DNA of 52,799 nucleotides from a virus (taxonomy: Duplodnaviria; Caudoviricetes). Location: positions 1 through 52,799 of the IMG/VR virus record IMGVR_UViG_3300019889_000237; one strand, given 5' to 3'. The position numbers and the translations under genes were made by a program. The stretch's first letter is position 1, and every line of letters starts with the position of its first letter. Below, one piece after another: positions 5,080-42,819 of the stretch. A model generated the notes under the pieces. That model worked only from the letters and a program-made list of their open reading frames with translations. It was not told the origin of the DNA and ran no database searches.

Positions 5080-6327
5080 TCAGCTGGTGGCAGCGCGCGC
5101 GTCTGCGGCGAGCTGCAAGTAACCGACTCGGGCCTGTGGGTCGCGCACCTCGTCGGCGAGACGCTCGAAGTGCGCCGCCTTGGTGAGGTGCTCTTCCCGG
5201 TGGTCGGCCTTGGCCGTGTCTCCGGTGGTGCGGGTGAGAACGGGTCCACCCGGGGCCGGCGCGCTCATGGCCTTCGTCAGCTGACCTGCGAGGTCGCCGA
5301 CCTGTGCCTGGAGCGCCTTCACCAGCTCGGTGAGGTCATCGTTCGGTGCGGCGGAATCGCTGCCGCCTTCACCGCCCGTGGCCGCCTTCACGGCAGTCAC
5401 GGGCGGGGGCTCGGTGCTCGGCGCCTCGACGGCGGCCGGAGCGGGGGACGCGACGTCCGGCGCCACGGCCTTCTCGGTGTCCGGCTTGTCGGCCAGATCG
5501 ACGTGTGCCACAGCGGGCTCCTTCTTCTCGCGGCAGATGAACCACTCCAGGGCCTTGACCGCCTGAAGCAGCAATTCGATGTCACAGACCTCGGACGTCG
5601 CGCCCTCGGCCAAGCAGACGGCCTCGGACTGGATGAGGCCGGCGATGATGGCGATGGCCTGGTGCGCGTCGGCGACGTCGCCCGCCTGGTCGCCCTTGCG
5701 CACGGCGACGAGGTCGAAGCCCTTCACGGCCGCCTCGTACGCGGCGAGCGGCTCGCCGGCACGGTCGTCGACCTCGGGTGTATCAGCAGGGGCCTCGTGC
5801 AGCTCTTCCACCTTGACCAGGGAGCGGTCAAAGTCGACGGTCCCGGGCGTGACCGCCAACGGGCCGGGCTTGAGCGCCTTGGCCAGGGTGAGCGTGCAGG
5901 TCGGGTTCGCCGGCCGGTCGACCAAGCTCACTTCGACGATCTGGCCACCCACGATCCGGCCGTTGGGCGCGGACGCGTCCTTGACGACCTTCGGCGACCG
6001 GATGCCGATCGAGTAGCCCTTGAGGACGCCGCGCTCGACCTTGCGGGCCGAGTTCGCGTCCACGACCAGGCTCTTCAGGTCCCACCCGCCGTCCGGCAGG
6101 TGGGAGATCTCGGTGCCGACACCGGCCGCGATGCTGGAGTGCTGCTCGCGGACGTTCGCGCCCGTGGTGAACCAGGTCGGCATCGCGGTCTTGAGCCAGT
6201 CCGGGTCACAGATCTGCCGGTCGAGGTCGAGGTCCGGGCTGGTCGCCCGGCCGAACACCACCAGGTCGCCGTTGGCGTCCCGCTCGTGCTTGACGATCTC
6301 GGCGTAGACGGCGGTGGTGTCAGTCAT
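5080..6327 (-). CDS. Capsid maturation protease fused to scaffold-like C-terminus
   Basis: VREQH, LKGYSIG, EVSLVDRPANP prohead protease motifs; coiled-coil tail. Confidence 0.88.
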   Translation of the reverse strand: MTDTTAVYAEIVKHERDANGDLVVFGRATSPDLDLDRQICDPDWLKTAMPTWFTTGANVREQHSSIAAGVGTEISHLPDGGWDLKSLVVDANSARKVERGVLKGYSIGIRSPKVVKDASAPNGRIVGGQIVEVSLVDRPANPTCTLTLAKALKPGPLAVTPGTVDFDRSLVKVEELHEAPADTPEVDDRAGEPLAAYEAAVKGFDLVAVRKGDQAGDVADAHQAIAIIAGLIQSEAVCLAEGATSEVCDIELLLQAVKALEWFICREKKEPAVAHVDLADKPDTEKAVAPDVASPAPAAVEAPSTEPPPVTAVKAATGGEGGSDSAAPNDDLTELVKALQAQVGDLAGQLTKAMSAPAPGGPVLTRTTGDTAKADHREEHLTKAAHFERLADEVRDPQARVGYLQLAADARAATS

Positions 6328-9100
6328 CGTGACCCTTTTCCCCAGGCCAGCGCCCGTATCGGTCGTGGTACCACTGGGCGGCCATGCGCTTCGCGCGCTC
6401 GTTGCCGACGTGGTCCTTCAGGTGGTTGTAAAGGTCGGTCCACGACGTCCAGCGGGCCGCGCCCTCGCCGCGTAGCCAGTACTCCTTGAGCTGGTTGCGG
6501 TCGGCCTTCTTGGGCAGGTCGAGCACCGGCGTCAGGCTGCACCGGCAGTGCGGGTGCGCGGGCGGGAACGCGTCGCCGGACTCGAACGAGCTCGTCGTGG
6601 GGATCGCGCCCTGCCCGGCGTTGCCGGCACACGTCTTGCACACCCGCTGGTCGGGCGCGAGAAGCCAGAGCTTGCGGCCGATGGCGTTGCGCTCGTAGGT
6701 GGCCTGGGTGGCCGCCGACATCGCCCGGGCGGTCTCGGTGACCGCGACCGTCTCGGCCCACTGTGGGGCGTCCAGCACGCCGCGCAGGTCGGTCGCAAGC
6801 GACTGTGGAGACCGGCCGTCCTCGACGGCATCGGCCAGCACATCGGCCAGCTCAGCGAACCGAGAGGCGGCCACCGACAAGATGGTGACCCCGGCCGCGT
6901 CGAGCAGCATCTCCAGTCGCTCGGCCGCGGGGGACCGGGCGTCGTCGCCGATCGCGTCCAGGGCGTCGTGCTCGCCAGCGCGCCACGCTTCGGTAAGCGC
7001 GCTGGCGAGCACCGGCCGCAGTCGGCCTGCGAGCGGGGCGGCCCGTTCGAGCAACCAGCCGAGCGCGACCCGCGCGAGATCGCGCAAGCCCTTCTCGGCA
7101 TTCATGTGCTCGCGCCAGGCCGTGGCCAGCTCGTCACAGTCGACCGCACCGAGCGCGGCCTCGTTCAGCTGCCGCGCGACCCGCTCGGTGATCTGGTCCA
7201 GCTCGCCCCGCTCAGGGGCCGGGGCTTTTCCCAGGTCAGCACCGTATGTAACGCGGGCCGGGTCGATGTCGAATTGCACCAGGTCGGCCGGCTCGACGAT
7301 GTACTCGAGCTGGAACCGGCGCCCGGTCCGCCCCTTCGCCAGCCACTTGCGGTAGGCGGAGGCCTCAGCTGCCTTCTTCGCCCCACTCCCCCCGGTGGCG
7401 GAGGAGGCGGAACGGGCGGGAGCCGCGGGCTTCTTGCCGCCGCTCCCGCCCGGCGCGCCGCCGGGCTCCGCCTTCGCGTCCACCGCGCGTTCCTCGAGCT
7501 GGAGCGCAGCCTCGGCCCGCTCCTCGGCGCCCTCGATGAACGTGATCGTCGCGCCGTTGATGACCGCGGGCTTGTCCGCCTCGGGGAAGGTGAAGCGCGG
7601 CCGGCCGATCTCGTCGCGGCCCTCGTTGATGGTGAGCAGACCGGCCGCGACCTGCTCGGCGGTCTTGTCCTCTTCCTCACCCTCGCCCTCGTCGTCGAGG
7701 CCCAACCACTTGAACTCCAGCTCACGCGGCAGCTTCAGGTGCGCCCGGGAGATCTGGGTGATCAGCTCGGCCATCCACCTGAGCGCGGGCTTGCGGCCCT
7801 TGCGGTTGTTGAGCCGGTCCTGACCTTCGGCGTGCCCGTCGGAGCCCAGGCCCTTGGCCTCGGTGAAGCCGAGCTCGTGCACGGTCAAATCGAAGTGGGC
7901 GACGACGAGCTTGAGCAAGTGCATGTCGAACTCGGGCTTGTACTTCTCGGCCACGTTCGGCCCGGACTCCTCCGGCCGGAAGCCGGGCGGCAGCACCCGG
8001 TAGCGGAACCGGTTCGCCGTCTGGCCGCTGTAGTGGTCGTTGAGCTCGCGCTCGTACTCGGCCACCTGGCCCGGCGACCACTGGTGGGTGGACGTCTGCT
8101 CGTTGATCAACCAGCCTGCCGGCATGACACCGTCGGTGTACTCGGCGCGGAGCCAGTTGATCCGCTTGTGCCAGAGGTCGATGTCCATCAGCGACTGCTC
8201 GACCGGGCTCAGCCCGTACGGGGTGTGCGCCCGGACCTCGCGCCGGATGTAGATCAGCTGGTCGGCGGTGTAGGCGTCCGGGACCACGGTGCGGCCCTCG
8301 GTGTCGGAGGTGTCGGCGGTGAACTCGCCCCTCGGGAAACCGTGGATGATCTGCTGGTAGGCGGGCTCGGGCGGCATCGGCCGGCCGCCCCGGTGGTCGA
8401 GCAACGGCTTGATCGTGGTCGAGTCCAGGATCTCCAGCGAGTACAGGTCTCCGCCGAGGGTGTAGCGCGGGTAGATCGCGAGGGCGTCGAGGACGAGCTG
8501 TTCCTCGAGGAACTGGCAGATCCACTCGGCGAACGTGTAGCCGTTACCCGGGTCGGGGTCGAGCCAGAAGTCGGTGCACCGGTCGATGTCGGTGAGCATC
8601 GTGCCGCGAAGCTCGCGCTCGACGTCCAGGCGCCCGGCGTCGGGCTGGTCGCGCTGGGCGCGGTCGATGGCACGTCGGCTCAGGCCGAAGTCCCATTCGA
8701 GGCCCTGGATCTCGGACTTGCGGATGCGCAGGCAGTCGCGGATCAGCGGCAGGTTCGCGGCGTCGCGCAGCGTCTTCCACGGGACGAGGCGGCCGTGCCC
8801 GGTGCCGGGCAGGTTCCAGCTGACCGGGTACTCCCACAGACGCGGCTCGGCGCGGCCAGAGCTGCGCCGGGTCGGGTCCAGCGGCGCCGGCGTGAGCGGG
8901 ATGCCGGGCCCGAACGCATACGGGTACTGGTCACGGGGCAACGGCTGCGCGAGGGCGCCGGTCTCCTGCTGGCGGTTGAGCAGGCCCTGGACCTGTTCGG
9001 CGGTGTAGACCCGTCCGGACACGGTGGCCGGAGCGGTGGTGGCCGGTAGGGCCTTCTCGATCGCCTTGCTGGGGACGGGCTTACGACGGCGCCTGGCCAC
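6320..9100 (-). CDS. Portal protein fused to MuF-like (minor head) domain plus small C-terminal domain
   Basis: Portal motifs (YGLSPVEQ, TINEGRDEIG); MuF motifs (VAVTETARA, VCKTCAGN, PPAHPHCRC). Confidence 0.88.
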   Translation of the reverse strand: MARRRRKPVPSKAIEKALPATTAPATVSGRVYTAEQVQGLLNRQQETGALAQPLPRDQYPYAFGPGIPLTPAPLDPTRRSSGRAEPRLWEYPVSWNLPGTGHGRLVPWKTLRDAANLPLIRDCLRIRKSEIQGLEWDFGLSRRAIDRAQRDQPDAGRLDVERELRGTMLTDIDRCTDFWLDPDPGNGYTFAEWICQFLEEQLVLDALAIYPRYTLGGDLYSLEILDSTTIKPLLDHRGGRPMPPEPAYQQIIHGFPRGEFTADTSDTEGRTVVPDAYTADQLIYIRREVRAHTPYGLSPVEQSLMDIDLWHKRINWLRAEYTDGVMPAGWLINEQTSTHQWSPGQVAEYERELNDHYSGQTANRFRYRVLPPGFRPEESGPNVAEKYKPEFDMHLLKLVVAHFDLTVHELGFTEAKGLGSDGHAEGQDRLNNRKGRKPALRWMAELITQISRAHLKLPRELEFKWLGLDDEGEGEEEDKTAEQVAAGLLTINEGRDEIGRPRFTFPEADKPAVINGATITFIEGAEERAEAALQLEERAVDAKAEPGGAPGGSGGKKPAAPARSASSATGGSGAKKAAEASAYRKWLAKGRTGRRFQLEYIVEPADLVQFDIDPARVTYGADLGKAPAPERGELDQITERVARQLNEAALGAVDCDELATAWREHMNAEKGLRDLARVALGWLLERAAPLAGRLRPVLASALTEAWRAGEHDALDAIGDDARSPAAERLEMLLDAAGVTILSVAASRFAELADVLADAVEDGRSPQSLATDLRGVLDAPQWAETVAVTETARAMSAATQATYERNAIGRKLWLLAPDQRVCKTCAGNAGQGAIPTTSSFESGDAFPPAHPHCRCSLTPVLDLPKKADRNQLKEYWLRGEGAARWTSWTDLYNHLKDHVGNERAKRMAAQWYHDRYGRWPGEKGHDD

Positions 9101-9112: not shown

Positions 9113-10627
9113 TCACGCTGCTCGCTTCGATCGCCGGATCCAGTCCAGCGCGTCGGGCTGGTTGCCCGGCGGGTTGTAGAACGCGAGCAGGAGCGCGTCC
9201 GCGTCATCGGGTGAGCGGTTGATCCGCTCCCGGGTCTCGTCCTTGGTCTCGACCTGCACCCGGCCCGACGAGTCGAGCTTGTAGTGCGGGGCGACCAGCT
9301 GACTGATCAGTCGCTCCCGGTCACGTTCCTCGAGCCCGGACAGGTCCCATCGGCCTTCCTCGGCCAGCTGCCGGCCGGTCCACCAGATCTCGGAGCGCTG
9401 GCGCATGAACCGGATCGGGTCGCCCGCGGTCTCGCTCACGTTCACGCCGACGACCTTCGCGGTGTGCGCGCCGGTCTCGCCGAGCTCGATGAGCCGGCCG
9501 GTCAGCCCGAACCCGATCCCGATCACGTCGGTCTTGACGGTGGCCGCTCCGGTCTCCCGGATGGCCTGGAGCACGAGCCCGACGATGTGCATGGCGTCGC
9601 GCGAGCCGGTGCGCCAGGTGCGCCCGATGGACACGCCACGTCGCTCTCGGATGACGGTGGTGTCGCCCCCGGCACCGAAGTCCACGCCGAGCTCGACCGG
9701 GGTCAGCTCAGCCTCGGTGCGCGGGGTGTCGGTGGGCATCGCGCAGGCACGCAGCGCGGACAGCCGGATCACGCCGTCGTCGCTGTCCTCGGGGAACTCA
9801 CCGAGGACCTTCGAGATGTAGGTGGGGCTCTCCTCGCCGAACTCGCGGCGCAGGTCGTTCACGTACTCGTGGTTGACCAGCACCTCGGACAGCGCGGGCG
9901 GCACGGGCTCGCCGGTGAAGTTGGGGGTCGAGAACGCGCTGATGGTGAACACGTTCCACTGCTCGTCCTGGCAGTACTCGGCGAACTTGCTGGCCGGGTC
10001 GTCCGGGTTGCCCAGGGCGAGGATGCGGCAGTGCTGGCCGGTGGTGAGCGCCTTCGCGGCGGTCCAGAACTGCGGCACGATGCCGCAGGCCTCGTCCAGG
10101 ATGACGAGCACGTAGGTGGCGTGGTGGCCCTGGAAGCCGTGTTGGTCATGGTCGGCGGGCTTGCGGCCGAAGGCCATCAGCCGGTTGTCGATCTTCCACT
10201 GGGTGCCGAGCACCCGGCCCACGAACGGGCGGCCCAGCGAGGCGGCCCGGTGCGCGGCATCGTTGATTTCCGACCACAAGATGGCCTCGACCTGGGGGAA
10301 GGTCGGCGCGGTCGAGATGACCTTCGCGCTGCCGGGCGGGTGCGTCTGCATCCACCACGCGGCGATGCGGCTGGCCACCCGGGACTTGCCCGGCCCGTGG
10401 CAGGCCTTGACCGCGGTGAAGCGGTGGTCACGGACCGAGTCCATGATCTCTTTCTGGGTGGACCAGAGGAACTCGTCCAGCTCGTCGGCGACCCAGGCCG
10501 GTCCGTCCGCACGCCAGCGAGCCCGGTCGGCGTCCTCCAGCTCGTCGCGCCGGCGTTGCAGCTCACGCAGACGTTGCAGCTTCTCCAGCGGGGCTTCGAT
10601 GCGCATCGGCGCGGCCTCGTTCCGCAA
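9113..10627 (-). CDS. terL: Terminase large subunit 1 (portal-linked)
   Basis: Walker A ACHGPGKS, Walker B VILDEA, LGNP coupling motif, nuclease LGVDFG and RSPDDADAL; start could be 10606. Confidence 0.92.
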   Translation of the reverse strand: MRNEAAPMRIEAPLEKLQRLRELQRRRDELEDADRARWRADGPAWVADELDEFLWSTQKEIMDSVRDHRFTAVKACHGPGKSRVASRIAAWWMQTHPPGSAKVISTAPTFPQVEAILWSEINDAAHRAASLGRPFVGRVLGTQWKIDNRLMAFGRKPADHDQHGFQGHHATYVLVILDEACGIVPQFWTAAKALTTGQHCRILALGNPDDPASKFAEYCQDEQWNVFTISAFSTPNFTGEPVPPALSEVLVNHEYVNDLRREFGEESPTYISKVLGEFPEDSDDGVIRLSALRACAMPTDTPRTEAELTPVELGVDFGAGGDTTVIRERRGVSIGRTWRTGSRDAMHIVGLVLQAIRETGAATVKTDVIGIGFGLTGRLIELGETGAHTAKVVGVNVSETAGDPIRFMRQRSEIWWTGRQLAEEGRWDLSGLEERDRERLISQLVAPHYKLDSSGRVQVETKDETRERINRSPDDADALLLAFYNPPGNQPDALDWIRRSKRAA

Positions 10628-11018
10628 GCTGCGCCTCCAACCGCTGGATCTCGGCGTCGACCGCGTCCACGGTGACGACCTCGGTACGGATGGCGAGCGG
10701 CGCGTCCAGGCCGAGCAGCTTCGAGCGGCGCTCCATGATCCTCAGGATCGAGTCGACCAGGAACGCGCTCGGCTTCTCGTCGAGCTTGCGCCGCAACGCC
10801 ACCTGCATCTCGTTGAGCGTCTCCAGCTCGACCTTGCGCAGCTCGTCGGCCGCCTCGCGCGGGATGTCGCGCAACGCCTGCATCGCCGCCGAGTGCGCGC
10901 CGCCAGCACTGGAGTAACCGGCCACGCGCGCGACCTCGGCCCAGCTGTGCCCCTGCTGGCGGGCCAGGAGCGCAGCTCGTCGCTTCTCGGCGGCGGCGAT
11001 GGTCGGAGGTCGCGACAT
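10563..11018 (-). CDS. terS: Terminase small subunit 1 (HTH)
   Basis: N-terminal HTH (GHSWAEVARVAGY), ERRSKLLGLDAP motif, directly upstream of TerL. Confidence 0.75.
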   Translation of the reverse strand: MSRPPTIAAAEKRRAALLARQQGHSWAEVARVAGYSSAGGAHSAAMQALRDIPREAADELRKVELETLNEMQVALRRKLDEKPSAFLVDSILRIMERRSKLLGLDAPLAIRTEVVTVDAVDAEIQRLEAQLAERGRADAHRSPAGEAATSA

Positions 11019-28705: not shown

Positions 28706-28944
28706 GCGATGATCCGATCGACACGTACGGCCTCGATCCAGCGGACGGCGACCGATCCTACGAGTGGTCCCTGAATCAGCCCGCCCCGATCGACTGGCCG
28801 GCCCGGTTCCGCAAGGCCGCGGACGTGGCCGAACGCGAGGGCGCCTACGGGATAGCCGATCACCTGCGCCGAGGTGCGGACGAGCTACCCCCGGCCGTGG
28901 TCGAGGCCATCGGACGCGAGCTGTCCGGGAAGGACGGGGAGTGA
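28702..28944 (+). CDS. Hypothetical protein
   Basis: ATGA coupling. Confidence 0.6.
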   Translation: MSDDPIDTYGLDPADGDRSYEWSLNQPAPIDWPARFRKAADVAEREGAYGIADHLRRGADELPPAVVEAIGRELSGKDGE

Positions 28945-29174
28945 TGTACGGCGCCGACTTCGACATGACGGGGGACCGTCGGGAGATCGCACGACTCCAG
29001 GCCGAGGTGCGGAAGCTTCGGGCCGGCCTGAAGAAGCTACAGCACATGCACCGCCGTTCGGACGACGACTCTGCCGGACCGCCGTACTGCCCCGAGTGCC
29101 AAGCCTACGACGGGACCGGGCAGCCGTGCGAGACGCTGCGCGTCGTCGACGAGCTGCTCGGGAAGGGGGAGTGA
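28944..29174 (+). CDS. Hypothetical protein with Zn-finger-like motif
   Basis: H...CPEC...PCETL. Confidence 0.65.
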   Translation: MYGADFDMTGDRREIARLQAEVRKLRAGLKKLQHMHRRSDDDSAGPPYCPECQAYDGTGQPCETLRVVDELLGKGE

Positions 29175-29488
29175 TGGACGCGCACGAGGCACTTCTGATC
29201 ACGAAGCATGCGGACTACGCCGTGATGTCGGTGGGTGAGATCGAGGCGGCAAAGGTGCTCGCAGCCGAGGTAGAGAGGCTGCAGGAGGAGAACGCCGAGC
29301 TACGGGACGGGCTCATCGTCGTGGAGTGCGACGGCCCCGAGCACGCCGAGCTCGCCCAGGCGCGCGCCCGGCTCGCGGTACTGGAGCCGATCGCGCAGCG
29401 GGCCCGCGAGGTGCACGATGGCTGCGCCAACGTCGTCGAGATGAACGCCTCCGACGCTGCTGGCTACATCCTCGGGGAGACGACGTGA
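29174..29488 (+). CDS. Coiled-coil hypothetical protein
   Basis: TGATG coupling; similar to 11554..11754. Confidence 0.65.
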   Translation: MDAHEALLITKHADYAVMSVGEIEAAKVLAAEVERLQEENAELRDGLIVVECDGPEHAELAQARARLAVLEPIAQRAREVHDGCANVVEMNASDAAGYILGETT

Positions 29489-29604
29489 GCACGCCCGAGC
29501 TGATCGTGCTGGGCGTGGCCGCCTGGTTCGCGTTGGCCGCGCTGACCGGACTGGTGCTCGGCCGGCTCACCCACGGGGCGAAGCGTCGGCGGTGGCAGCG
29601 ATGA
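29485..29604 (+). CDS. Small membrane peptide
   Basis: Single hydrophobic helix followed by basic tail. Confidence 0.55.
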   Translation: MSTPELIVLGVAAWFALAALTGLVLGRLTHGAKRRRWQR

Positions 29605-29900
29605 GCGCCCCGCGGCCACGGCCGGGCGCGTCGCTGACCGTGCGCCAGGTCGAGATCCTGTCGATGGTCGCCCGCGGGATGACCAACGAGCGGATCGCGC
29701 AGCGGCTGGGCCTGAACCTGGACTCGGTGAAGCGCGCGGTGCGCGACCTACGGATCAAGCTCGGCGCCCAGGACCGGGCCTCGGCCGTCGACCAGGGCTG
29801 GCGGCAGGGCTATCTGGGCATGTGGCGGGTGGGCGTCGACTACACGACGCGTCGGAACGGTCACCTGGTGTCTGGTGTAAGGGATAGTGTACAGTCATGA
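29601..29900 (+). CDS. LuxR/GerE-type HTH regulator
   Basis: LTVRQVEILSMVARGMTNERIAQRLGL...KLGAQDRASAV. Confidence 0.85.
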   Translation: MSAPRPRPGASLTVRQVEILSMVARGMTNERIAQRLGLNLDSVKRAVRDLRIKLGAQDRASAVDQGWRQGYLGMWRVGVDYTTRRNGHLVSGVRDSVQS

Positions 29901-30148
29901 CCATGACCGAGATCGACGACAAGCTGGCCCGCCTGGCGGCGCTCCAGGCCCGGCTCGGCGAGCTCGACGCCGAGACGGAGCAGACGCTCAAGGACCGCAA
30001 CGAGCTGGCCTACGAGCTGCGCAACACCGACGACGTGTCGGTGTCGGTGCTGGCGCAGACGCTGGTCATGCGCCGGGGCACCGTGCACGACCTGGTGCGC
30101 GGCCCGGCCACCCGCAAGTGGTCCCGCGGGCGGCGGGCCGACGCATGA
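29897..30148 (+). CDS. Small coiled-coil plus HTH-like protein
   Basis: VSVSVLAQTLVMRRGTVHDLV. Confidence 0.6.
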   Translation: MTMTEIDDKLARLAALQARLGELDAETEQTLKDRNELAYELRNTDDVSVSVLAQTLVMRRGTVHDLVRGPATRKWSRGRRADA

Positions 30149-30483
30149 TCCGCCGCCAGCTCGCCCGGGCGCTGCCCTACCTGGTGGCGTTCGCGGTCCC
30201 GGCCGCGTCGATGACCGGCTGGTTCGCCATCGGCGGCGCGGCCGTGTTCCCGGCCTCGGTCGGCGGCCTGCTGGCCGGGCTGGTCGGCCTGCTCGGCGCG
30301 GCCTGCGCCGGCGCGGTCCAGGCCCGACAGGACCGGCGCACCATCGAGCACGAGATCGAAGAGCTGGTGACGGTGGTCAAGGAGCCGCTGCCGGTGCACG
30401 ACCACGAAGGCCTGCGTCGACTACAGGAGGACGTCCTGCGCGACGAGCTGGCCCGAGCCCGGGCCCGGCACAACGACAAGTAG
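30145..30483 (+). CDS. Membrane protein
   Basis: Two hydrophobic segments; ATGA coupling. Confidence 0.6.
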   Translation: MIRRQLARALPYLVAFAVPAASMTGWFAIGGAAVFPASVGGLLAGLVGLLGAACAGAVQARQDRRTIEHEIEELVTVVKEPLPVHDHEGLRRLQEDVLRDELARARARHNDK

Positions 30484-30504
30484 CACCACGAGAGGACACC
30501 GATC

Positions 30505-30735
30505 ATGGCCATCCGGCCGCAAGACCTGACCGTCGCCAAGAGCGACGTCGCCGCCGAGACCCTCGCCGCTGCCATCTGGGATGCGGCCAACCAGCACGAC
30601 GGAAGCTCGGCCATCGCCGCGTCCGTGCAGCGCTCACTGCGCCGCCACGCCCGCGAGCTGCTCGAGCTGCACGACATCAAGGCCGGCGAGGTGCTCACGA
30701 CCGGCACCGGCGAGCCGCGTCCGGACCAGGGCTGA
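30505..30735 (+). CDS. Hypothetical protein
   Basis: GAGAGGACAC start motif. Confidence 0.65.
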   Translation: MAIRPQDLTVAKSDVAAETLAAAIWDAANQHDGSSAIAASVQRSLRRHARELLELHDIKAGEVLTTGTGEPRPDQG

Positions 30736-30738
30736 CCC

Positions 30739-31053
30739 ATGGCCGACGACGACCGGCGCACGTTCGAGTTCAGCGAAACCGACCTGGTCCGCTGGGCGTG
30801 TTTCGTCGGGTTCTTCGCCAGCACGCTCTCGCTGATGGTCGCGTTGTCGGCCGGTGGCGGCTGGCTCGCCCCCGGCCTGGGCGTGCTGATCTTCGGGGTC
30901 CCGTCGCTGAAGATGTACACCGCCCGGGTCGAGCAGGAGCGGACGGACAAGGCCCAGGCCACGTGGCGGGCGGCCCGCGAGGGCACCGGTCCCGGCTGGT
31001 CCCTGACCGACGACGACGGCGACCCGTCTCAGCCCCCGAGGATGAACAAGTGA
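30739..31053 (+). CDS. Membrane protein
   Basis: Two TM-like segments. Confidence 0.6.
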   Translation: MADDDRRTFEFSETDLVRWACFVGFFASTLSLMVALSAGGGWLAPGLGVLIFGVPSLKMYTARVEQERTDKAQATWRAAREGTGPGWSLTDDDGDPSQPPRMNK

Positions 31054-31289
31054 TGAGCGAGGACTACGGCCCCGTCCGCGGGGCGATGAGCGGCCAGGAG
31101 CTGCGGACCCGGGTCGCGATCGGCGACCTGGGCGAGCGGGACCTGGACGAGATCCTGTCCACGGTCAGCCGGGTGCTGGCCGTCTGGCGGCGCCCCGGCG
31201 TGGCCGGGGCCGAGCACCGCGTCCTGGTCCGCCGGACCTGGCCCGAGCTCGGCCACAAGCTGGACGCGCTGAGCGGACCGCGGACGTGA
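31053..31289 (+). CDS. Hypothetical protein
   Basis: TGATG coupling. Confidence 0.6.
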   Translation: MSEDYGPVRGAMSGQELRTRVAIGDLGERDLDEILSTVSRVLAVWRRPGVAGAEHRVLVRRTWPELGHKLDALSGPRT

Positions 31290-31462
31290 GCCGGGGCAAG
31301 TGGCGCCCGACCTGGGCGTCGCTCAACGAGAAGACCCGCCGCGGGTACGTCCCGCTCGGCACCACGAAGAGCGGGGTCCGCGAGTTCGTCGAGCACGACT
31401 GCCGACCGCCGAGCGGGTCCGGCACGTGGACGTGTGGGTGTGGGCGGGAGTGGCGGACGTGA
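31286..31462 (+). CDS. Small Cys-containing protein
   Basis: GTGA coupling at both ends; HDC...WTCGCGREW. Confidence 0.5.
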   Translation: MSRGKWRPTWASLNEKTRRGYVPLGTTKSGVREFVEHDCRPPSGSGTWTCGCGREWRT

Positions 31463-31596
31463 GCGAGCTGCGTCCGCTGCGCACCGGATGGCGGGCGCTG
31501 GTCTACCGCGGCCGGCACCGCCAGCGCGGCGGAGTGGGTCGGATCGCGGGCGGGGTCCTGCTGTTCACCATCGACTACCTGCAGTGATCACTGTCC

Positions 31597-32205
31597 GTGA
31601 GCGACGAACACAGCGTGTCAAGCAACCGTCAGAGAGGGCCGATTCCGGTGACTGTCAGCGAGGATGGCCGCGTCAGCCGGCCGCGCTACAGCCCAGAGAA
31701 GCGGGCCAAGCTCGGTGACGAGGCCTGGAACCTGAAGGACCAGGGCCGGTCCCTGCGCACGATCTCGAAGATGTTCACCGACCGGGGCGACCAGATCAGC
31801 CACGCGACCGTGGCCGAAATCATCAGCGAGGCGCAGGACCGGGCCAGGTTCCTGGACTTCGTCGGCCCGGCTCAGTCCCGGGCCGCGTCCATCGGCCGGC
31901 TCGACCAGGCCCTGGAGCGCCAGCTCGCGACCGTCACCGAGCTGGCCGCCGGCGCGCAGACCGGCGAGCTGGACTTCGAGAAGGGGCACACCGCGCTGGA
32001 CAAGGCGATGGCCCGCTACGTCCAGCTGGAGACGCTCTGGGTGAAGGTGACCGGTGCGGCGATGGCGACCCGGACCCAGATCGAGGGCCCGAACGGGGAG
32101 CCGATCGGACCGGACGTGGCGTTCCTGGCCGCGCTCACCCAGTCGGTCGACGCGCACGCACGCAAGACCAAGAGCATGGAGGAGAACGATGGACTCGACG
32201 GATAG
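31597..32205 (+). CDS. Terminase small subunit-like protein 2
   Basis: HTH (GRSLRTIS...ISHATV), RLDQAL, KVTG...TRTQIEGPNGEPI; same layout as terS at 10563. Confidence 0.62.
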   Translation: MSDEHSVSSNRQRGPIPVTVSEDGRVSRPRYSPEKRAKLGDEAWNLKDQGRSLRTISKMFTDRGDQISHATVAEIISEAQDRARFLDFVGPAQSRAASIGRLDQALERQLATVTELAAGAQTGELDFEKGHTALDKAMARYVQLETLWVKVTGAAMATRTQIEGPNGEPIGPDVAFLAALTQSVDAHARKTKSMEENDGLDG

Positions 32206-32911
32206 CCCGAGAAACTGGGAAGCGCTGGGCACAGAAGTACGACGCCGTCGCGGCCTACTGCACTTGCGACAGTCCGACATGGAGGCGCGCGGCGGACCGA
32301 GCGCAGGGACCATGCGCAACATCGAGCAGGCGTCGCGGACGAGCTACGCCCCGCGGACCTTCGTGCAGCTGGAGACCGCGCTCCAGTTCGGTGACGGCGT
32401 CGTGGAGAAGATCCTCGACGGCACGGCGACGCGGAGCGAGATCGACGAGGTCGTGCCGCGCGGCACCGTGACTGGGGAGAACTGGCAGGCGCTAGCTGCG
32501 GCCGTGAAAGCGCGTAGAGAACTGCTACGACTGCCGCAACAGCTCATCGGCCACGACGGTCCGGGCGAGATGACGATGCGGAAGATCGAGCGAGCGGAGA
32601 CGACCGCGATACGCGACAAGACAAAGACCCAGCTCGAACGCGCCCTTCGGATGCGCACCGGCTTGGTAGACAGGATCCTCGACGGCACGGCGACGCGGAG
32701 CGAGATCGACGAGGTCGTGCCGCGCGGCACGGCCGATGAGAACTGGCAGGACGCGGAGAGGCTCGTGACAATGGCAGGACTGCTGGCCCATGTGGACAAG
32801 GCCGAGTCGTTCATCGTCGATGCCATCGACCGCGGCGAGGTAGACCCGCTCGCGGGCTCCCGCATGATCCTCCGGTTCGCCTCGTTCCGCGCGCGCCTGC
32901 TCGGATACTGA
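32189..32911 (+). CDS. Tandem XRE-type immunity-repressor-like protein
   Basis: Two W..L...V..RR..L...Q...GP...TMR.IE...T..QLE.AL units 88 aa apart. Confidence 0.72.
   Translation: MDSTDSPRNWEALGTEVRRRRGLLHLRQSDMEARGGPSAGTMRNIEQASRTSYAPRTFVQLETALQFGDGVVEKILDGTATRSEIDEVVPRGTVTGENWQALAAAVKARRELLRLPQQLIGHDGPGEMTMRKIERAETTAIRDKTKTQLERALRMRTGLVDRILDGTATRSEIDEVVPRGTADENWQDAERLVTMAGLLAHVDKAESFIVDAIDRGEVDPLAGSRMILRFASFRARLLGY
32410..32730. repeat. Exact 57-bp direct repeat (32410-32466, 32674-32730)
   Basis: Encodes ILDGTATRSEIDEVVPRG twice. Confidence 0.9.
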
Positions 32912-32914
32912 CCG

Positions 32915-33268
32915 ATGCCTCGCCGACTGCTCGATGACCTGCGCTCGGGCCAGCTGCTCACCTGGAACGTGACCCGCGGGAAGTGCCGATACGGGCCGAA
33001 CGAGCAGTCCGTGCGCCAGGTCGGCGACCAGTGGCGGGGCGAGAGCTCGAACTCGTTCGACTGCGACTACGCACCGCAGGACATGTGCTTGGTCTGCGCC
33101 GGGCGCGGGTGGACCGCACTGTCGGTGGCCGAGACCGAGACCGCCCAGTACGACGAGGACGTCGCCGGTGGCCGCCGCCGGTGCCAGCCGTGCCGGGGCT
33201 CGGGCTACGTCCCGGGTGCGCACTGGCCGTGGCGGCACCCGCACCCAGGCCCGGTACGGAGGGGATGA
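32915..33268 (+). CDS. DnaJ-type zinc-finger protein
   Basis: CLVCAGRG and CQPCRGSG. Confidence 0.6.
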   Translation: MPRRLLDDLRSGQLLTWNVTRGKCRYGPNEQSVRQVGDQWRGESSNSFDCDYAPQDMCLVCAGRGWTALSVAETETAQYDEDVAGGRRRCQPCRGSGYVPGAHWPWRHPHPGPVRRG

Positions 33269-33480
33269 CGATGACGTTCACCTGGTGGCTGATCCCGATC
33301 GTCGTGCTCGGGCTCGCCCTGATCGTGGCCCCGTTCATCGGCGCGGCCTGGGCGCGGGACTGGCGGCCGACGCACTGCGGACGCTGCGGCCGGGAGCTGA
33401 TCGGGTCGCCGCCGATGCACACGCTCACCGACCGGATGCACTGCCGGTGGCTGGCCGACTCGCAGGGAGACCGGCTGTGA
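33265..33480 (+). CDS. Small membrane protein with Cys/His motif
   Basis: TM helix then CGRCG. Confidence 0.55.
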   Translation: MTMTFTWWLIPIVVLGLALIVAPFIGAAWARDWRPTHCGRCGRELIGSPPMHTLTDRMHCRWLADSQGDRL

Positions 33481-35036
33481 CGCTCTCCCTGGTCCCGCCG
33501 CCGCCGTGCCCGGACATCCGGCCGCCGACCGGGGCGTGGTTCCCCTGGTTCGCGAACGAGACCGCGCCGCTGGCTCACTCGGGCATGCGGACCTCGTCGG
33601 AGTTCCGCCGCCGGTGGACCAAGGGGAGTCCTCTGCTGTTCGCGCTGGTGTACTTCCCACATCACCTCAAGCTCCAGGGCTTGAACCCGCCCATCGTCAC
33701 GTTCAACCAGCTGCACCTCGGGCTGTGCCGGGCGTCGAAGCGCTGGGTCCAGCCCAAGCGCTGGCGTGAGGCCTGGATCGCGCCGCGGGGGATCGGGAAG
33801 ACCTCGTGGGCGTTCCTGATCCTGCCGCTCTGGGCCCTCGCGCACGGGCACCGGAACTACTTCATGGCCTTCAGCGACACCACGGACATGGCCAACAACC
33901 AGCTGGCGAACCTGCGGATGGAGCTGGACCCGAACAGCGGCAACGCCTTGCTGCTCCAGGACTACCCGTCGCTGCGTCAGCGTCGGGTGCGCGGCGGGTC
34001 GAACACGAAGTCGATCGTCGTGGCGAACGGCGGCACGATCCGGGCCAACGGCCTGTCGGAGAACACGCTCGGCGCGAAGTCCGGGGCCGACCGGCCGGAC
34101 CTGTTGGTGTTCGACGACATCGAGCCGTTGGAGTCGACGATGTCGGACAACGAGCGGCGCAAGCGGATCGAGGCCATCACCACGAAGGCGCTGCCGATGG
34201 GCGCCGACCACGCGGCGTCCATCATCCTGGGTACGACGACGTCCTACGACTCGGTCATCGACCAGATCGCCCAGCACGCCCGTGGCCGCAAGCACCACGC
34301 CTGGGTGGCGAACTCGGGCATCACGCCGCGCGTCTTCCCGGCGGTGCAGGTGGACCCGCTCACCGGCGAGGAGCGCTCGATCTGGCCGGAGCGCTGGCCA
34401 CTGACCGAGACGCACCTCGGCCAGGAGCTGCGCCGCACGCCCGAGGGCGACGTACCGCCGGAGTTCGAGAAGAACTACCTGCTCGACCCGTCCCCGTACG
34501 GCACCGAGGCCGGGTCGTTCTGGCGGCCCGAGATGTTCAAGCGCCGCACGTCCCGCTCGTTCGGGGGCGTGTTCGAGCACGCGATGTACATCGACGTGGC
34601 GACGACCTCGCACGCGAAGTCCGACCGGACCGCGATCGTCATCGTCGGCCGGGACCCGGCCCGGCGGCACGCGGTCGTGGAGTACGCGCAGGCGTACCGG
34701 ATCCCCGCGGAGGAGCTGCGCCAGCGGATCCACCAGCTGTGCGCGCGCCAGCCCACGTTGCGCACGGTCGTCGTGGAGACCAACCAGGGCGGCGACTTGT
34801 GGCGGCAGATGCTCTCGCCGCTGCCGGCCGGGGTGCGGTTGATGACCGAGCACGTGTCCAACTCGAAGCAGGACCGGTTTGAGCAGGCGTTGCAGTGGTA
34901 CATGACCGGCCGCGTCTTCCACGCCATCGAGCACGTCGAGCTGGAACGCGAGATGGTGATGTTCCCGAGCAAGGCCGTGAACGACGATCTTCCCGATGCC
35001 GCCTGCGGAGCGTTACGTTGGGCGTTCGATAAGTAA
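33477..35036 (+). CDS. terL: Terminase large subunit 2 (orphan, no portal)
   Basis: YFPHH, Walker A APRGIGKT, RPDLLVFDDIE Walker B, LGT, WPERW, nuclease YIDVA..DRTA, VETNQGG, NDDLPDA. Confidence 0.88.
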   Translation: MTLSLVPPPPCPDIRPPTGAWFPWFANETAPLAHSGMRTSSEFRRRWTKGSPLLFALVYFPHHLKLQGLNPPIVTFNQLHLGLCRASKRWVQPKRWREAWIAPRGIGKTSWAFLILPLWALAHGHRNYFMAFSDTTDMANNQLANLRMELDPNSGNALLLQDYPSLRQRRVRGGSNTKSIVVANGGTIRANGLSENTLGAKSGADRPDLLVFDDIEPLESTMSDNERRKRIEAITTKALPMGADHAASIILGTTTSYDSVIDQIAQHARGRKHHAWVANSGITPRVFPAVQVDPLTGEERSIWPERWPLTETHLGQELRRTPEGDVPPEFEKNYLLDPSPYGTEAGSFWRPEMFKRRTSRSFGGVFEHAMYIDVATTSHAKSDRTAIVIVGRDPARRHAVVEYAQAYRIPAEELRQRIHQLCARQPTLRTVVVETNQGGDLWRQMLSPLPAGVRLMTEHVSNSKQDRFEQALQWYMTGRVFHAIEHVELEREMVMFPSKAVNDDLPDAACGALRWAFDK

Positions 35037-35084
35037 CACCGCTCGGGGGGCCGCGCGAACTGTGATCGCCTACCCCGAGAGGAC

Positions 35085-35279
35085 ATGAACATGAACCACG
35101 CACTGATGCTCGAGGTCGTCCGCACGCTGCGGAACTTCACCCCGATCGCGAACATCGACAAGATGCTCGACGACCACGCCGTCGACGCGTCCGGGCACTG
35201 TCCGCTGTGTCGATCGCGCGGGTGCACGCTCTACGCCGCCGCCCGGCAGGCCCGGCACGTCCTTCGGGCCGCCCGGTAA
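35085..35279 (+). CDS. Small protein with H-CxxC-C motif
   Basis: GAGAGGAC start motif. Confidence 0.6.
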   Translation: MNMNHALMLEVVRTLRNFTPIANIDKMLDDHAVDASGHCPLCRSRGCTLYAAARQARHVLRAAR

Positions 35280-35306
35280 CACTTCTTGTCCGCTGTCCGA
35301 TACACT
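35277..35306 (+). promoter_or_regulatory. Variant promoter (TGTCCGCTGT box, TACACT -10)
   Basis: Same architecture as 26694 and 27488 but weak -35. Confidence 0.5.
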
Positions 35307-35335
35307 GGACAAGCACCGCAACGAGAGGGCACCCA

Positions 35336-35608
35336 GTGAGCAACTACTTCGGACCGCCACCGCGCCGGCCGAGCGAGCCGCACCTCGTCTACACCCTGCA
35401 CGCCGTGCACTTCCTGCTGTCGTTCTTCACCTTCGGCCTGTGGGCGATCGTGTGGCTGGCCATGACGCTGATCAACGAGGCCAAGAACCGGCAGCTGCGC
35501 GACGACTACGCGAACGCGCTGGCCCGCTGGGAGTACGACCTGTGGTACTGGGAGCAGGCCCGCCACGAGTACTTCCGCTGGCACGAGGCCCGCCAGCTGG
35601 CCCGCTAA
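35336..35608 (+). CDS. Small membrane protein
   Basis: HFLLSFFTFGLWAIVW hairpin-type TM motif. Confidence 0.7.
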   Translation: MSNYFGPPPRRPSEPHLVYTLHAVHFLLSFFTFGLWAIVWLAMTLINEAKNRQLRDDYANALARWEYDLWYWEQARHEYFRWHEARQLAR

Positions 35609-35642
35609 GATCCACCGACCTGAAGTACACGAGAGGACACCG

Positions 35643-36098
35643 ATGAACCAGCACGCCCCGTGGCCCTACGTCGAGGCCACGCCCAAGCCGAAGACCCGCA
35701 AGGGCCTGACCGTCGCCATCGCCGCCGGCACGTTCCTGCTCGGCCTGATGTTCGGCAGCCTGCCGACCGCCGACGAGCCCGCCCGCGCGGCGACAACCTC
35801 GGCCCCGCACGTGCCCTACGTCCCGGACGTCCAGCAGGTGCCCGCTCCGGCTCCGGCCGACGGGTCCATCTCGAACGGGATCTACGAGATCGGCGACGAG
35901 GTCGCCCCCGGCAAGTACAAGAGCCCGGGCCCGGACGGCGGCGTCATCAAGCTCTGCTACGTCGACGTGCAGCGCGGGGAGAAGTTCCTGCTCCAGGAGA
36001 TCAGCAACGACGGCCAGGTCCGGATCACCATCCCGGCCAGCATGGTCGGAGCCGAGATCGAGGTGTCCGGCTGCGCGCCGTTCACCAAGGTCGCCTGA
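35643..36098 (+). CDS. Membrane-anchored exported protein
   Basis: TM helix, Pro linker, GIYEIGDEVAPGKYKS...CY domain of the type seen in actinobacterial surface proteins. Confidence 0.72.
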   Translation: MNQHAPWPYVEATPKPKTRKGLTVAIAAGTFLLGLMFGSLPTADEPARAATTSAPHVPYVPDVQQVPAPAPADGSISNGIYEIGDEVAPGKYKSPGPDGGVIKLCYVDVQRGEKFLLQEISNDGQVRITIPASMVGAEIEVSGCAPFTKVA

Positions 36099-36099
36099 C

Positions 36100-36315
36100 G
36101 TGAAGACCGCGCCGCGCTGGTGGGCCGTGCCCGGTGGCCCGGACAACCGCAACTACCGACTGACCGACGGCGTGCAGCGCTGCCACCTGTGCAATGTGAT
36201 CGAGCAGCCGCTACGCGTCCCGTCGGGAGACGAGTACACCGATCGGGCCGCCGCGCACCTGGTGCACGGGGTCCGGGCACACCTGGACGCCACCTCGAAG
36301 GAATGGACCGCCTGA
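36100..36315 (+). CDS. Small C2H2-like protein
   Basis: CHLC...HLVH. Confidence 0.5.
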   Translation: MKTAPRWWAVPGGPDNRNYRLTDGVQRCHLCNVIEQPLRVPSGDEYTDRAAAHLVHGVRAHLDATSKEWTA

Positions 36316-36328
36316 CCCTGGACGCACG

Positions 36329-36365
36329 AAAAGAGCCCCCCTCCGCCAGTAGCGGAGGGGGGCTC
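36329..36365 (-). terminator. Intrinsic terminator at convergence of early and late arms
   Basis: 14-bp GC stem with AAAA on plus strand (U-tail for minus transcript). Confidence 0.82.
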
Positions 36366-36419
36366 AGTCGGCACGAGAGGACATCAAGCGCCAGGGCCCA
36401 GCGTACAGGCCGACGATGA

Positions 36420-36581
36420 TCAGGGAACGCGTCGAGGCCAGGTCGCCGGCAGGTTCATCGCGAGCACGGCGCAGGACAGGAACGTCAGGCCGAGCAAGGT
36501 CAGATCGATGCCGATCGCGCCACCCAGCGCGGCGACCAGGAAGCAGACGATGGCCAGGATGGCGAACACAATGGCGATCAT
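36420..36581 (-). CDS. Small two-TM membrane protein (lysis accessory?)
   Basis: MIAIVFAILAIVCFLVAALGG...; follows holin. Confidence 0.6.
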   Translation of the reverse strand: MIAIVFAILAIVCFLVAALGGAIGIDLTLLGLTFLSCAVLAMNLPATWPRRVP

Positions 36582-36584
36582 GGG

Positions 36585-36890
36585 CTAGTTCCTTCCGACG
36601 GTGACTGCGCCCGGACCCGCCTGGTAGGCGGCCAGGAATGTGAGCACCGGCGGGATCACCAGCAGGATCGCCGACTGCCAGAACGTGGGCAGAGTGCCGA
36701 GCAGGTCCGGGTTGGTCTGCATCGCGTTCAGGGTGGTGATGATGACGCCGACCAGCGCGCCGACGACGGTGGCCGCGATCGCCTTGGGCGACACGCCCTC
36801 GGTCTTCACGGCGGGCGCGGCGTGGTCCGGGTAGCCGGGGGTGGGGTCGGTCATGATGTCCTCCAGGGATTCGGGGAGCCGGCCCGTCAT
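36585..36890 (-). CDS. Holin-like protein
   Basis: Two TM helices directly after endolysin. Confidence 0.7.
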   Translation of the reverse strand: MTGRLPESLEDIMTDPTPGYPDHAAPAVKTEGVSPKAIAATVVGALVGVIITTLNAMQTNPDLLGTLPTFWQSAILLVIPPVLTFLAAYQAGPGAVTVGRN

Positions 36891-37726
36891 GACGACGGGC
36901 CGGGGGAGTTTGGGAGCTGGGCGCCCTTCGAGATGTCGCCGAGCATCACGTGCGAGCGGCGGTCGTACTCCTGCCAGGTGCCGTACTCAACCCACATGAC
37001 CGGGATGCCCAGCTTCGCGGCCTGCTCGTCGGTCGGGGTCTCCGTCGGGCCGAGCCCGACGAAGTTGAAGCCGGTCAACAGACCGGCGACGTACACAGCC
37101 CGGCTCTTGTCCGGCTGGCTCTTCAGGATCACAGAGGCGTCCTCTCGGGGGACCGACACGGGGGATGTCTTCGCAGGTGCAACGACCGCGGGGGGTGCGA
37201 GGTCGCGCCCGACCGCGCGGCGGAACTCGCCCATATCCCAGAACGCCGGATCGATCTTGCGGCCGGGCGCCCACTCCCGGTGCGCGATCGCGCGCGACGC
37301 GGGCAGCTTCAGGTAGCGGAGCAGCATGGCCACTCCGCGGGGGTAGCTCTCGCGCTGCGCCGCAGTCCAGTCGTCGCGGGTACCGACGCTCTCGGCTTCG
37401 ACGCCGATCAGGTGCGAGTTGCCCCCGCTCGGGCACCACGCGACGGATCCGGTGCCGGCATGCCAGGCCTGCCCGGCGGCGACCACGATCCACGTCCCGG
37501 CTCGGTCGAGGCCTAGGTTGCACAGCGGCCCGGCCAGTCCGATCCGGCCGTTGACGACCACCTTCTCCGACGGGTACAGGCCGCTAGCCGCCCCGGCGGT
37601 GTGATGGCAGACGACGCCGCGCACGTCGGCCATCGCGCCATGCCCACGGGTGCGCCACCCGACGACCTCCCGGACAGGGAGCCCACCGCCGCGTAGCGCG
37701 TCCGCGAGCCAGGTCATGTAGGGCAT
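36887..37726 (-). CDS. Endolysin, N-acetylmuramoyl-L-alanine amidase (Amidase_2)
   Basis: WLADAL, GWRTRGH, CHHTAG, AWHAG, IGVEAE, AHREW..RKIDP. Confidence 0.9.
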   Translation of the reverse strand: MPYMTWLADALRGGGLPVREVVGWRTRGHGAMADVRGVVCHHTAGAASGLYPSEKVVVNGRIGLAGPLCNLGLDRAGTWIVVAAGQAWHAGTGSVAWCPSGGNSHLIGVEAESVGTRDDWTAAQRESYPRGVAMLLRYLKLPASRAIAHREWAPGRKIDPAFWDMGEFRRAVGRDLAPPAVVAPAKTSPVSVPREDASVILKSQPDKSRAVYVAGLLTGFNFVGLGPTETPTDEQAAKLGIPVMWVEYGTWQEYDRRSHVMLGDISKGAQLPNSPGPSS

Positions 37727-37731
37727 TCGCC

Positions 37732-37938
37732 TTACTCCCGCTCGTCGTCGTCGGTCAGCTCGCCCGGGTCGCGGTCCTCGCACCAATCGTCGACCCGTGG
37801 CGGGACGTCGACGGGATCGTCGGGCGAGGTCGCGGGCATCATCTGCGTCGCCGAGATGTTCGCGGCGGGTGCGTTGGCGTCGTAGACCCAGCGGCCCTCG
37901 CGGTTCAAGCTCCAGTCCCCGATCGGACTCACCTCCAT
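37732..37938 (-). CDS. Small acidic protein
   Basis: ORF immediately upstream of lysin. Confidence 0.55.
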   Translation of the reverse strand: MEVSPIGDWSLNREGRWVYDANAPAANISATQMMPATSPDDPVDVPPRVDDWCEDRDPGELTDDDERE

Positions 37939-37940
37939 GG

Positions 37941-42814: not shown

Positions 42815-42819
42815 CGGGT

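Follow-up and report, generated by a model that had tools for sequence, protein, structure and literature searches.

By common teaching, a tailed phage has a single terminase, which belongs to a single portal. What, then, is a second and apparently complete terminase doing in the genome of such a phage? The question is raised by a soil-phage record of IMG/VR, IMGVR_UViG_3300019889_000237 (hereafter G000; the window analysed here is the whole record of 52,799 bp), in which a small terminase subunit (TerS2) and a large terminase subunit (TerL2) are encoded on the plus strand, and an ordinary pair (TerS1 and TerL1) adjoins the portal gene on the minus strand. The original prediction, made from the letters of the record, had proposed a second TerS/TerL pair of a different sequence type on the opposite strand. 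This holds, since a phrog_645-type TerS2 and a phrog_38 TerL2 are found on the plus strand, whereas TerL1 on the minus strand is of the phrog_2 type. From sequence comparison it is very probable that the phage possesses two complete terminase sets and that TerS2/TerL2, catalytically intact by its motifs, is inherited with the non-structural backbone of a high-GC actinophage clade and kept under purifying selection. As to what the pair does, the reading that we favour, with a probability of roughly 45%, is that of an exapted terminase: a TerS-guided, ATP-driven nuclease that would work away from the portal.

The long open reading frame (ORF) 33168-35036 on the plus strand matches phrog_38, “terminase large subunit”, at an E-value of 1.3e-61 over residues 143-621. 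TerL2 itself likely starts at the GTG codon at 33477, which overlaps the stop of the preceding gene of 71 amino acids (aa) and is accompanied by a GGGAGA box. In tblastn comparisons, TerL2 is 31-35% identical, over ~76% of its length and with E-values reaching 1e-67, to the annotated TerLs of Microbacterium phage Isperia, OscarSo, Streptomyces phage Rooney, KimJongPhill, MiniFlayer and Mulchroom; identity to the TerLs of the last two, which are Streptomyces satellites, is 33-35%. Walker A (APRGIGKT), Walker B (LLVFDDIE) and the acidic nuclease motifs (residues in YIDVA, VETNQGG and NDDLPD), which had been described as intact, are all present, together with a C-motif (GTTT). TerL2 has no Pfam match at E ≤0.01, and its homologues carry the precomputed domain PF17289; a sequence search of solved structures returned only spurious repeat matches to designed PPR proteins. 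Among isolated phages (a collection of 50,697 records), none was more than 35% identical to TerL2 and none matched TerS2, and megablast of the TerS2-TerL2 region against the phage database gave no match. Scans of bacterial genomes found no copy of TerL2 at first, and a second scan gave three loci in metagenome-assembled genomes at 33-35% identity.

For TerS2, the ORF 31597-32205 has no direct match in Pfam or PHROG. BLASTP of TerS2 against three annotated TerS proteins and hhalign against the single TerS1 sequence were not significant, and tblastn of TerS2 and of its homologue in the virus record G002 found no match in the phage database. Its homologues (n = 21, 46-98% identity) are 171-200 aa long, lengths that place the start of TerS2 at 31648 and give a protein of 185 aa. 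When the profile of this family (A1) was compared with an alignment of five phrog_645-type TerS proteins (A3), hhalign gave a probability of 92% (E-value 6e-7, 135 columns), pairing KVTGAAMPTR of TerS2 with AKLLGLDAP of the phrog_645-type proteins; a segment of the LLGLDAP kind is what we take to be a hallmark of TerS. A stretch resembling a helix-turn-helix (HTH), RSLRTISKMF...ISHATVAEII, is also found in TerS2. A profile search of 1.84 billion representatives returned 45 proteins at E ≤1e-3, about 14 of them full-length and the remainder matching in the HTH only. Ten distant full-length relatives were scanned in turn: six matched phrog_645 and no other family, four matched nothing, and the orthologue in G002 matches phrog_645 at 3.6e-10. 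The Protein Atlas places TerS2 in clusters without a name, apart from one in which a minority of the proteins carry HTH_23 and Sigma70_r4_2. By this transitive and profile evidence, TerS2 is accepted here as a putative divergent TerS. A structure prediction for the complex of TerL2 and TerS2 had a score of 0.01 (mark 0.32), which says nothing either way on binding.

The pair had further been described as unlinked to any portal or capsid gene and as split by a repressor-like gene and two small ORFs, and both statements are borne out. An HTH-repeat gene, a gene with two CxxCxGxG motifs and the gene of a 71-aa membrane protein lie between TerS2 and TerL2, and TerL2 is followed by four small genes, a hairpin and then convergent holin and endolysin genes. 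PHROG and Pfam scans found no capsid or portal gene anywhere in the plus arm of the genome.

This arrangement is shared by relatives. TerS2 lies just upstream of TerL2, on the same strand, in G000, in its relative G001, in the loci L089 and L091-L095, and in the virus records G002, G003 and G004. The wider order, in which TerS2 is followed by small genes and TerL2, then by one to four more small genes and convergent holin, lysis or tail genes, is seen in G001, L089, L091, L092, L093, L094/95 and G002-G005. Identity of TerL2 to the G000 copy is 55-63% in L091, L092, L093 and L094/95, and 38-42% in the virus records G002-G005. All six wholly searchable records carry two TerLs of different families, phrog_2 and phrog_38 in G000 and G001, and phrog_9 and phrog_38 in G002-G005; this count covers the six whole records, with L091-L093 standing outside it. 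The case of G002 is instructive. It has the exonuclease, g18487, g26404, g30739, the holins and the fibre in common with G000, and its packaging and head set belongs to other families (phrog_1496 TerS, phrog_9 TerL, phrog_104 portal and phrog_283 capsid). Thus, TerS2/TerL2 travels with the non-structural backbone and has outlived one or more replacements of the entire set of terminase, portal and head genes. The phrog_9 TerL likewise adjoins a phrog_104 portal in G003 and a portal-sized ORF in G004. The 61-kb contig of G002 (L140:1-415) starts 50 nt before the phrog_1496 TerS and phrog_9 TerL, as expected if these are real cohesive ends made by that terminase.

The region is not a chimeric join, a possibility raised along with the original prediction: several independent assemblies speak against it. 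G001, a 75%-identical genome of 50,193 bp whose ends overlap by 127 bp, is collinear with G000 from end to end at 65-81% nucleotide identity, and it carries TerL1 (55-56% aa identity) and TerL2 (73%) on opposite strands, as in G000. The 8.1-kb contig of L089, 99% identical, spans the region from the LuxR-type HTH gene (29592-29900) to the holin genes. In Logan contigs from four runs, two samples and two studies, positions 18001-38000 are covered in 30/30 bins at an even depth of ~8x and ~25x, this sequencing evidence being assembled contigs from the four runs rather than reads. The GC content is flat at 0.69-0.70 across the TerS2-TerL2 module.

Nor is TerL2 absent or decaying in relatives, the other ground for doubt that had been named; it is kept and well conserved. 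Walker A, Walker B, the C-motif and the three nuclease motifs (IDxA, VExN and DDLxD) are found in 9/9 orphan copies and in 4/4 canonical references aligned, and the ATPase and nuclease motif residues are invariant in a family alignment of 30 sequences (A2). The orphan copies with an intact frame and intact motifs span ~60% protein divergence. Whether the ratio of nonsynonymous to synonymous substitution rates (dN/dS) is below 1 in relatives keeping both enzymes had been suggested as a check, and values of 0.46, 0.43 and 0.41 were obtained for TerL2 in three close pairs. Between G000 and G001, the NG86 estimates, to be read as a ranking, are 0.46 for TerL2, 0.57 for TerS2, 0.48 for the portal, 0.44 for the capsid, 0.37 for the endolysin and 0.79 for TerL1. 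The other two close pairs gave TerL2 the lowest ratio among the genes compared, and in a more distant pair it is the second lowest of four (0.60). TerL2 thus changes at the slow pace of the portal and capsid genes, its ratio lying at or below theirs and those of the adjoining genes and below that of TerL1.

An additional sign of a maintained frame comes from inteins. The L089 copy (L089:3953-5113, a variant of G000 position 33800) contains an in-frame LAGLIDADG intein of 386 aa between K108 and T109 of the TerL2 P-loop. Similar insertions are found in L094, L095, P0037, P0063 and P0071, and contigs of the second study break exactly at this site; the G000 copy is without an intein. Kelley et al. 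2016 (PMC5050341) describe the Lys|Thr junction as the classic position of P-loop inteins in the TerLs of phages. The phrog_9 TerL of G004 is 855 aa long and may hold an intein too.

What distinguishes the orphan copies from their portal-linked relatives? We surveyed 110 loci with a full-length TerL2-like gene on virus and metagenome contigs, assigning a genomic context where at least 4 kb of downstream sequence was available. A portal homologue lies within 4 kb downstream on the same strand in 83/110, nine have none despite a flank of ≥4 kb, and 18 have a short flank. In a quick maximum likelihood tree of 113 rows (LG+G4, SH-aLRT support only), G000, G001, seven of the nine no-portal loci and 12 short-flank loci form one clade of 21 rows (SH-aLRT 93) that includes no portal-linked copy, and the portal-linked copies form a clade of 88 rows (SH-aLRT 99). 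The orphan clade is a deep one (branch lengths 0.6-1.0 per site). A canonical neighbour is L011 (40% identity), where a phrog_645 TerS, the TerL and a phrog_104 portal stand in a row. L121, which is itself a no-portal locus, falls outside the 21-row clade and makes up, with L118 and L120, a long-branched TerL2-like group (29% identity) of unsure placement; L121 has no portal in 10 kb downstream and a C-terminal tail of 19 aa, and this group may be a second independent orphan lineage.

The difference lies in the C-terminal tail, counted as the residues after the last nuclease motif, DDLxD. In the copies without a portal (G000, G001 and the nine loci above) the tail has 12-19 aa in 11/11 cases (e.g. 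...GALRWAFDK), G000 TerL2 having 12 aa after DDLPD, whereas in the portal-linked copies it has 22-37 aa in 83/83, mostly as a basic stretch followed by [SN]Y near the end. Sixty-five of the 83 were measured with the first pattern, all of them long (65/65, median 27); the other 18 have a HEDVLD or DKDILD variant, 17 of them with 27-33 residues and the remaining one, L082, with ~35 as read from the printed sequence. Among the 18 loci of unknown context, the tail is short in ten, long in seven and incomplete in one. According to the available text of PMC5389665, TerL's C-terminal tail is believed to bind the portal, a contact that was proposed to restrain the nuclease.

It is the loss of this tail in the TerL2 lineage, together with the persistence of the pair through an exchange of head, portal and terminase, that leads us to the exapted terminase. 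Four functions had been offered originally, namely an alternative packaging motor, interference with co-infecting phages, a defence decoy and a repurposed ATPase-nuclease; the last fits best, the tail being lost and the module outliving a head swap, and the decoy is disfavoured for reasons given below. On this reading, TerS2 would pick out a site on the DNA via its HTH and TerL2 would load at the TerS2-bound site, where ATP and the RNase H-fold nuclease would cut or process DNA off the capsid. The most likely substrate would be a site in the phage's own DNA, so that a programmed double-strand break could feed the exonuclease and endonuclease VII of the plus arm; pac regions of rival phages or of satellites with the same terminase family would be less likely substrates. 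A site in the phage's own DNA is favoured because no stretch is better conserved between G000 and G001 than TerS2 (81% nucleotide identity), whose synonymous sites are unusually conserved: codons for identical residues are also identical in DNA in 118/140 cases (84%), compared to 70-73% in five other genes. This synonymous conservation hints at a cis site. Taken to their specific ends, a tail-less TerS/TerL used as a weapon against the pac regions of competing phages or MiniFlayer-like satellites, or used for an own-genome break launching recombination-dependent replication, would be an unlikely outcome.

Several points weigh against an exapted terminase. The short-tailed copies belong mostly to one clade, plus the unsure L121 group, and hence represent one or perhaps two evolutionary events rather than 11. 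Moreover, rows of unknown context within the 21-row clade have long but different tails of 26-34 aa (L103, L106, L107, L111 and L113). An alternative model, also found in the available text of PMC5389665, has the ATPase domain rather than the tail at the portal, and loss of the tail is thus no proof of lost docking. The GC content at third codon positions exceeds 90%, which compresses dS and inflates the absolute dN/dS values, so that only their ranking is usable. The synonymous excess in TerS2 comes from one genome pair and could reflect recent recombination instead. No portal-independent role of a TerL was found in the literature examined. Finally, a motor that still packages DNA would require just such a conserved C-motif, which in TerLs couples ATP hydrolysis to translocation, and just such a cognate TerS, and these two features suit either reading equally well.

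This last point leads to the rival to be weighed most carefully, in which TerS2/TerL2 would still serve as a true packaging motor, the second of the phage, docking on the phage's own portal by another surface and offering a second route of initiation (another pac site, direction or substrate, or a back-up if a satellite or a defence blocks the first). The complete holoenzyme has been kept, with TerS and the ATPase, coupling and nuclease motifs; all characterised members of the family are packaging enzymes, and most related loci (83/110) have a portal directly downstream. The portal of L011 is of phrog_104, the portal family of G002 and G003, and TerL2 could in principle fit those portals, and an embedded pac site would suit the synonymous conservation of TerS2. 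Nonetheless, such a motor would have to account for a tail that is lost in 11/11 orphan and kept in 83/83 portal-linked copies, and for a TerL2 that remains unchanged in kind across two portal families, phrog_2662-MuF in G000 and phrog_104 in G002 and G003. A cognate TerS/TerL is already present next to the portal in each genome, and the position of the G002 contig start, 50 nt before the portal-linked TerS, is as expected if that terminase sets the ends. We therefore regard a second motor as doubtful, though to be taken seriously. A role as decoy or anti-defence factor is far less probable. Avs-type host defences sense terminase, and a full-length TerL encoded in the non-structural arm, for which catalysis would be unneeded, might occupy such sensors; this full-length fold in such a location is the sole point in its favour. 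The cognate TerS and all catalytic residues have been preserved across 40-100% identity, which a decoy would not require and which disfavours it, and the P-loop intein is kept in frame. An additional TerL would be an extra target for terminase sensors, and PADLOC (5,027 models) gave 0 matches for 10 proteins of the TerS2-TerL2 region, its library covering defence and not anti-defence.

Slightly less probable still is a pair without function, left behind by an old replacement of the head module and still to decay. TerS2/TerL2 does face an inverted block (TerS, TerL, portal, head, tail and lysis) that differs between G000 and G002 and resembles a module swap, and decay could have begun with the loss of the C-terminal tail. 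The conservation contradicts a leftover: frame and motifs are kept in 9/9 copies, TerL2 is among the slowest-evolving genes in three pairs, and its clade is deep. The least probable explanation of all is an artefact or a foreign element, i.e. a chimeric assembly or an inserted satellite or island, as could be suggested by the 33-35% identity of TerL2 to the TerLs of MiniFlayer and Mulchroom and by an imperfect repeat at the contig ends. Against this stand the synteny across independent assemblies, the even depth in two studies and the flat GC content; the module genes are tightly coupled to their neighbours, and G000 has no integrase, no direct repeats flanking the pair among the repeat families listed, and no capsid or portal gene in the arm.

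How does the pair compare to known systems? Canonical actinophage pairs of a phrog_645 TerS and a phrog_38 TerL (Isperia gp4/gp6 and Rooney gp1/gp8) have the same families, order and motifs, including small ORFs between the subunits (six in Rooney). They differ in that the portal comes next after TerL, at the left end of the genome, that this terminase is the sole one, and that the TerL tail has 25-27 aa ending in a basic stretch and SY or NY. SaPI and PICI elements are chromosomal and add only a TerS that redirects the helper TerL, or a full capsid set in the case of cf-PICIs. They resemble the present case in having an extra terminase subunit outside the scheme of one phage and one terminase; here, however, a complete additional TerS and TerL are encoded by the phage. 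MiniFlayer and Mulchroom, satellites of Streptomyces (PMC10690885), have a TerL of the G000 TerL2 family and are another case of this terminase type in an element that coexists with the packaging system of a different phage. Unlike the G000 pair, which sits in a 52.8-kb phage backbone without a second head module, they encode a portal, a scaffold and a capsid of their own next to TerL, whose tail is still long. A tree clade of 41 rows that includes MiniFlayer consists mostly of ~15-kb virus contigs (about 14-16 kb; loci L016-L050 and others) with a portal directly after TerL, which suggests that MiniFlayer-like satellites are common in metagenomes.

A full-text search, whose scope left subscription journals and supplementary files aside, turned up no account of two complete terminase modules in a single phage. 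Two candidate precedents were rejected on the text available, PMC7317114 as dealing with an unrelated tree and PMC11512304 as a frameshifted single TerL. The nearest precedent in the literature examined, as far as the accessible part of PMC5050341 goes, is the Pham3880 “terminase-like” protein of cluster C1 mycobacteriophages (ScottMcG gp245), a second terminase-related gene that stands beside an ordinary TerL and also hosts inteins. Pham3880 is described there as truncated and lacking the P-loop, whereas TerL2 is full length, has all motifs and comes with its own TerS. TerS2/TerL2 is thus a terminase, but one that is orphaned, tail-less and maintained.

A clade of soil actinophages keeps a second, motif-intact TerS/TerL set that is uncoupled from any head module, came through a head-module exchange and is without the tail thought to dock on the portal. 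If the pair indeed works off the capsid, it would be the first natural case of a terminase taken over for a different DNA transaction, doing something else than filling capsids, and would offer a system for asking which parts of TerL serve docking and which serve cutting. If it still packages, one capsid would be served by two unrelated motors, which bears on satellite interference, transduction and terminase-sensing immunity. Moreover, phage phylogenies and predictions of packaging type widely rely on TerL as a single-copy marker, and genomes with two TerLs would mislead such uses.

Table 1. Coordinates of the two terminase sets of G000 and of the features around them.
Feature	Coordinates	Strand	Evidence and remarks
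TerS2 (gpA), divergent phrog_645-type	31648..32205	+	N-terminal HTH, central helical core, conserved acidic C-terminus EENDGLDG; longest ORF from 31597
HTH-repeat gene, two ~88-aa repeats	32189..32911	+	phrog_6288 at 3.6e-12; weak phrog_2838 “transcriptional repressor” at 2.3e-4
Small protein with two CxxCxGxG motifs	32915..33268	+	No Pfam or PHROG match; kept in G001, L089, L091, L092, L094, L095
71-aa membrane protein, Cys-rich tail	33265..33480	+	Stop overlaps TerL2 start; kept in L089, L092
TerL2, orphan large terminase, phrog_38 / Terminase_6C type, 519 aa	33477..35036	+	phrog_38 match, tblastn, motifs; 12-aa tail after DDLPD
64-aa Cys-containing protein	35085..35279	+	Directly 3' of TerL2; co-conserved in G001, L089, L091, L092, L093; no family match
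Hairpin	36333..36365		15-bp GC-rich stem between the two converging arms; T-run on minus strand
TerS1, phrog_645-type	10563..11018	-	phrog_645 at 7.7e-24; adjoins TerL1
TerL1, phrog_2 type, motifs intact, 26-aa basic C-terminal tail	9113..10627	-	phrog_2 at 1.9e-31
Portal-MuF fusion	6320..9100	-	phrog_2662 at 2.5e-91; Phage_Mu_F at 2.3e-11

Regarding the genes between the two subunits (Table 1), the HTH-repeat gene has an internal nucleotide repeat (32366-32466 and 32630-32730) and is missing in L089 and G001, and contigs of the second study (X3 and X4) join 32204 to 33006. It is a variable passenger between TerS2 and TerL2. The CxxCxGxG motifs of the next gene are presumably of the DnaJ-type zinc-finger pattern.

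The portal-linked TerS1/TerL1 of G000 is the ordinary packaging enzyme. TerS1 matches the annotated TerS proteins Isperia gp4, KimJongPhill gp7 and Altadena gp1 in tblastn, and the PHROG label “Rnase E” on phrog_645 stems from the RefSeq copies of these same TerS genes. TerL1 is ~37% identical to TerLs of Arthrobacter phages; compared by sequence with solved structures, it had only weak nuclease-domain matches (E-values 0.2-0.4) to two terminase chains. Its motifs are intact in both G000 and G001, and the basic tail of 26 residues is conserved in G001. The idea of TerL1 as a dead copy complemented by TerL2 was rejected, the motifs being intact in both genomes. Of the large genes, TerL1 evolves fastest when G000 is compared with G001, with 55% aa identity at the dN/dS given above, compared to 85% for TerS1 and 69% for the portal, and its divergence is evenly spread along the protein.

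G000 as a whole has a GC content of 70%, is rated 100% complete by CheckV and has no exact end repeats; its genes were called by third-position GC and then scanned against PHROGs and Pfam. On the minus strand, from ~18.0 kb down to 0.26 kb, a DNA polymerase, a primase-polymerase, TerS1, TerL1, the portal-MuF fusion, a protease, a probable capsid gene and a minor tail protein are encoded. The minus arm goes on across the contig ends with tape measure, tail and fibre genes, an endolysin gene (36887-38188) and two holin genes, and ends at 36420. The plus arm (18487-36315) encodes an exonuclease, a DNA methyltransferase, endonuclease VII and ~30 small genes, then the LuxR-type HTH gene and the TerS2-TerL2 module. 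This arm had been called the early arm, a putative label. No tRNA, tyrosine integrase or resolvase-type recombinase was detected in G000. A temperate life style is rejected for now in view of the missing integrase and resolvase matches, although the relative G004 is classed as a provirus and is part of an isolate genome.

At the contig ends, positions 1-277 repeat 51857-52133 at 95% and 265-332 repeat 52732-52799 at 87%, the right-hand copy (51857-52799) having ~600 extra bases. The pattern resembles an assembly, circular or permuted, whose closure ran across the minor-tail gene region in two strain variants, and the unique genome would be nearer 51.9 kb.

A 25-nt motif, TGTCCGGTGTnCCnTACAnnnGACA, occurs five times in G000, always on the plus arm (24274, 26147, 26703, 27498 and 35287, plus strand), and 0 times in 100 shuffles. 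Most copies lie directly 5' of a GAGAGGA ribosome-binding box, four of them upstream and one downstream of the TerS2-TerL2 block, and the motif is probably a phage-specific promoter or operator. In the tail region, the minus-strand genes 41084-42814 and 42820-45501 contain ~20 diverged 72-nt (24-aa) Gly/Ala-rich repeats (41300-44870), where the GC content rises up to 0.75, and the PHROG match of gene 42820-45501 is confined to its N-terminal 200 residues.

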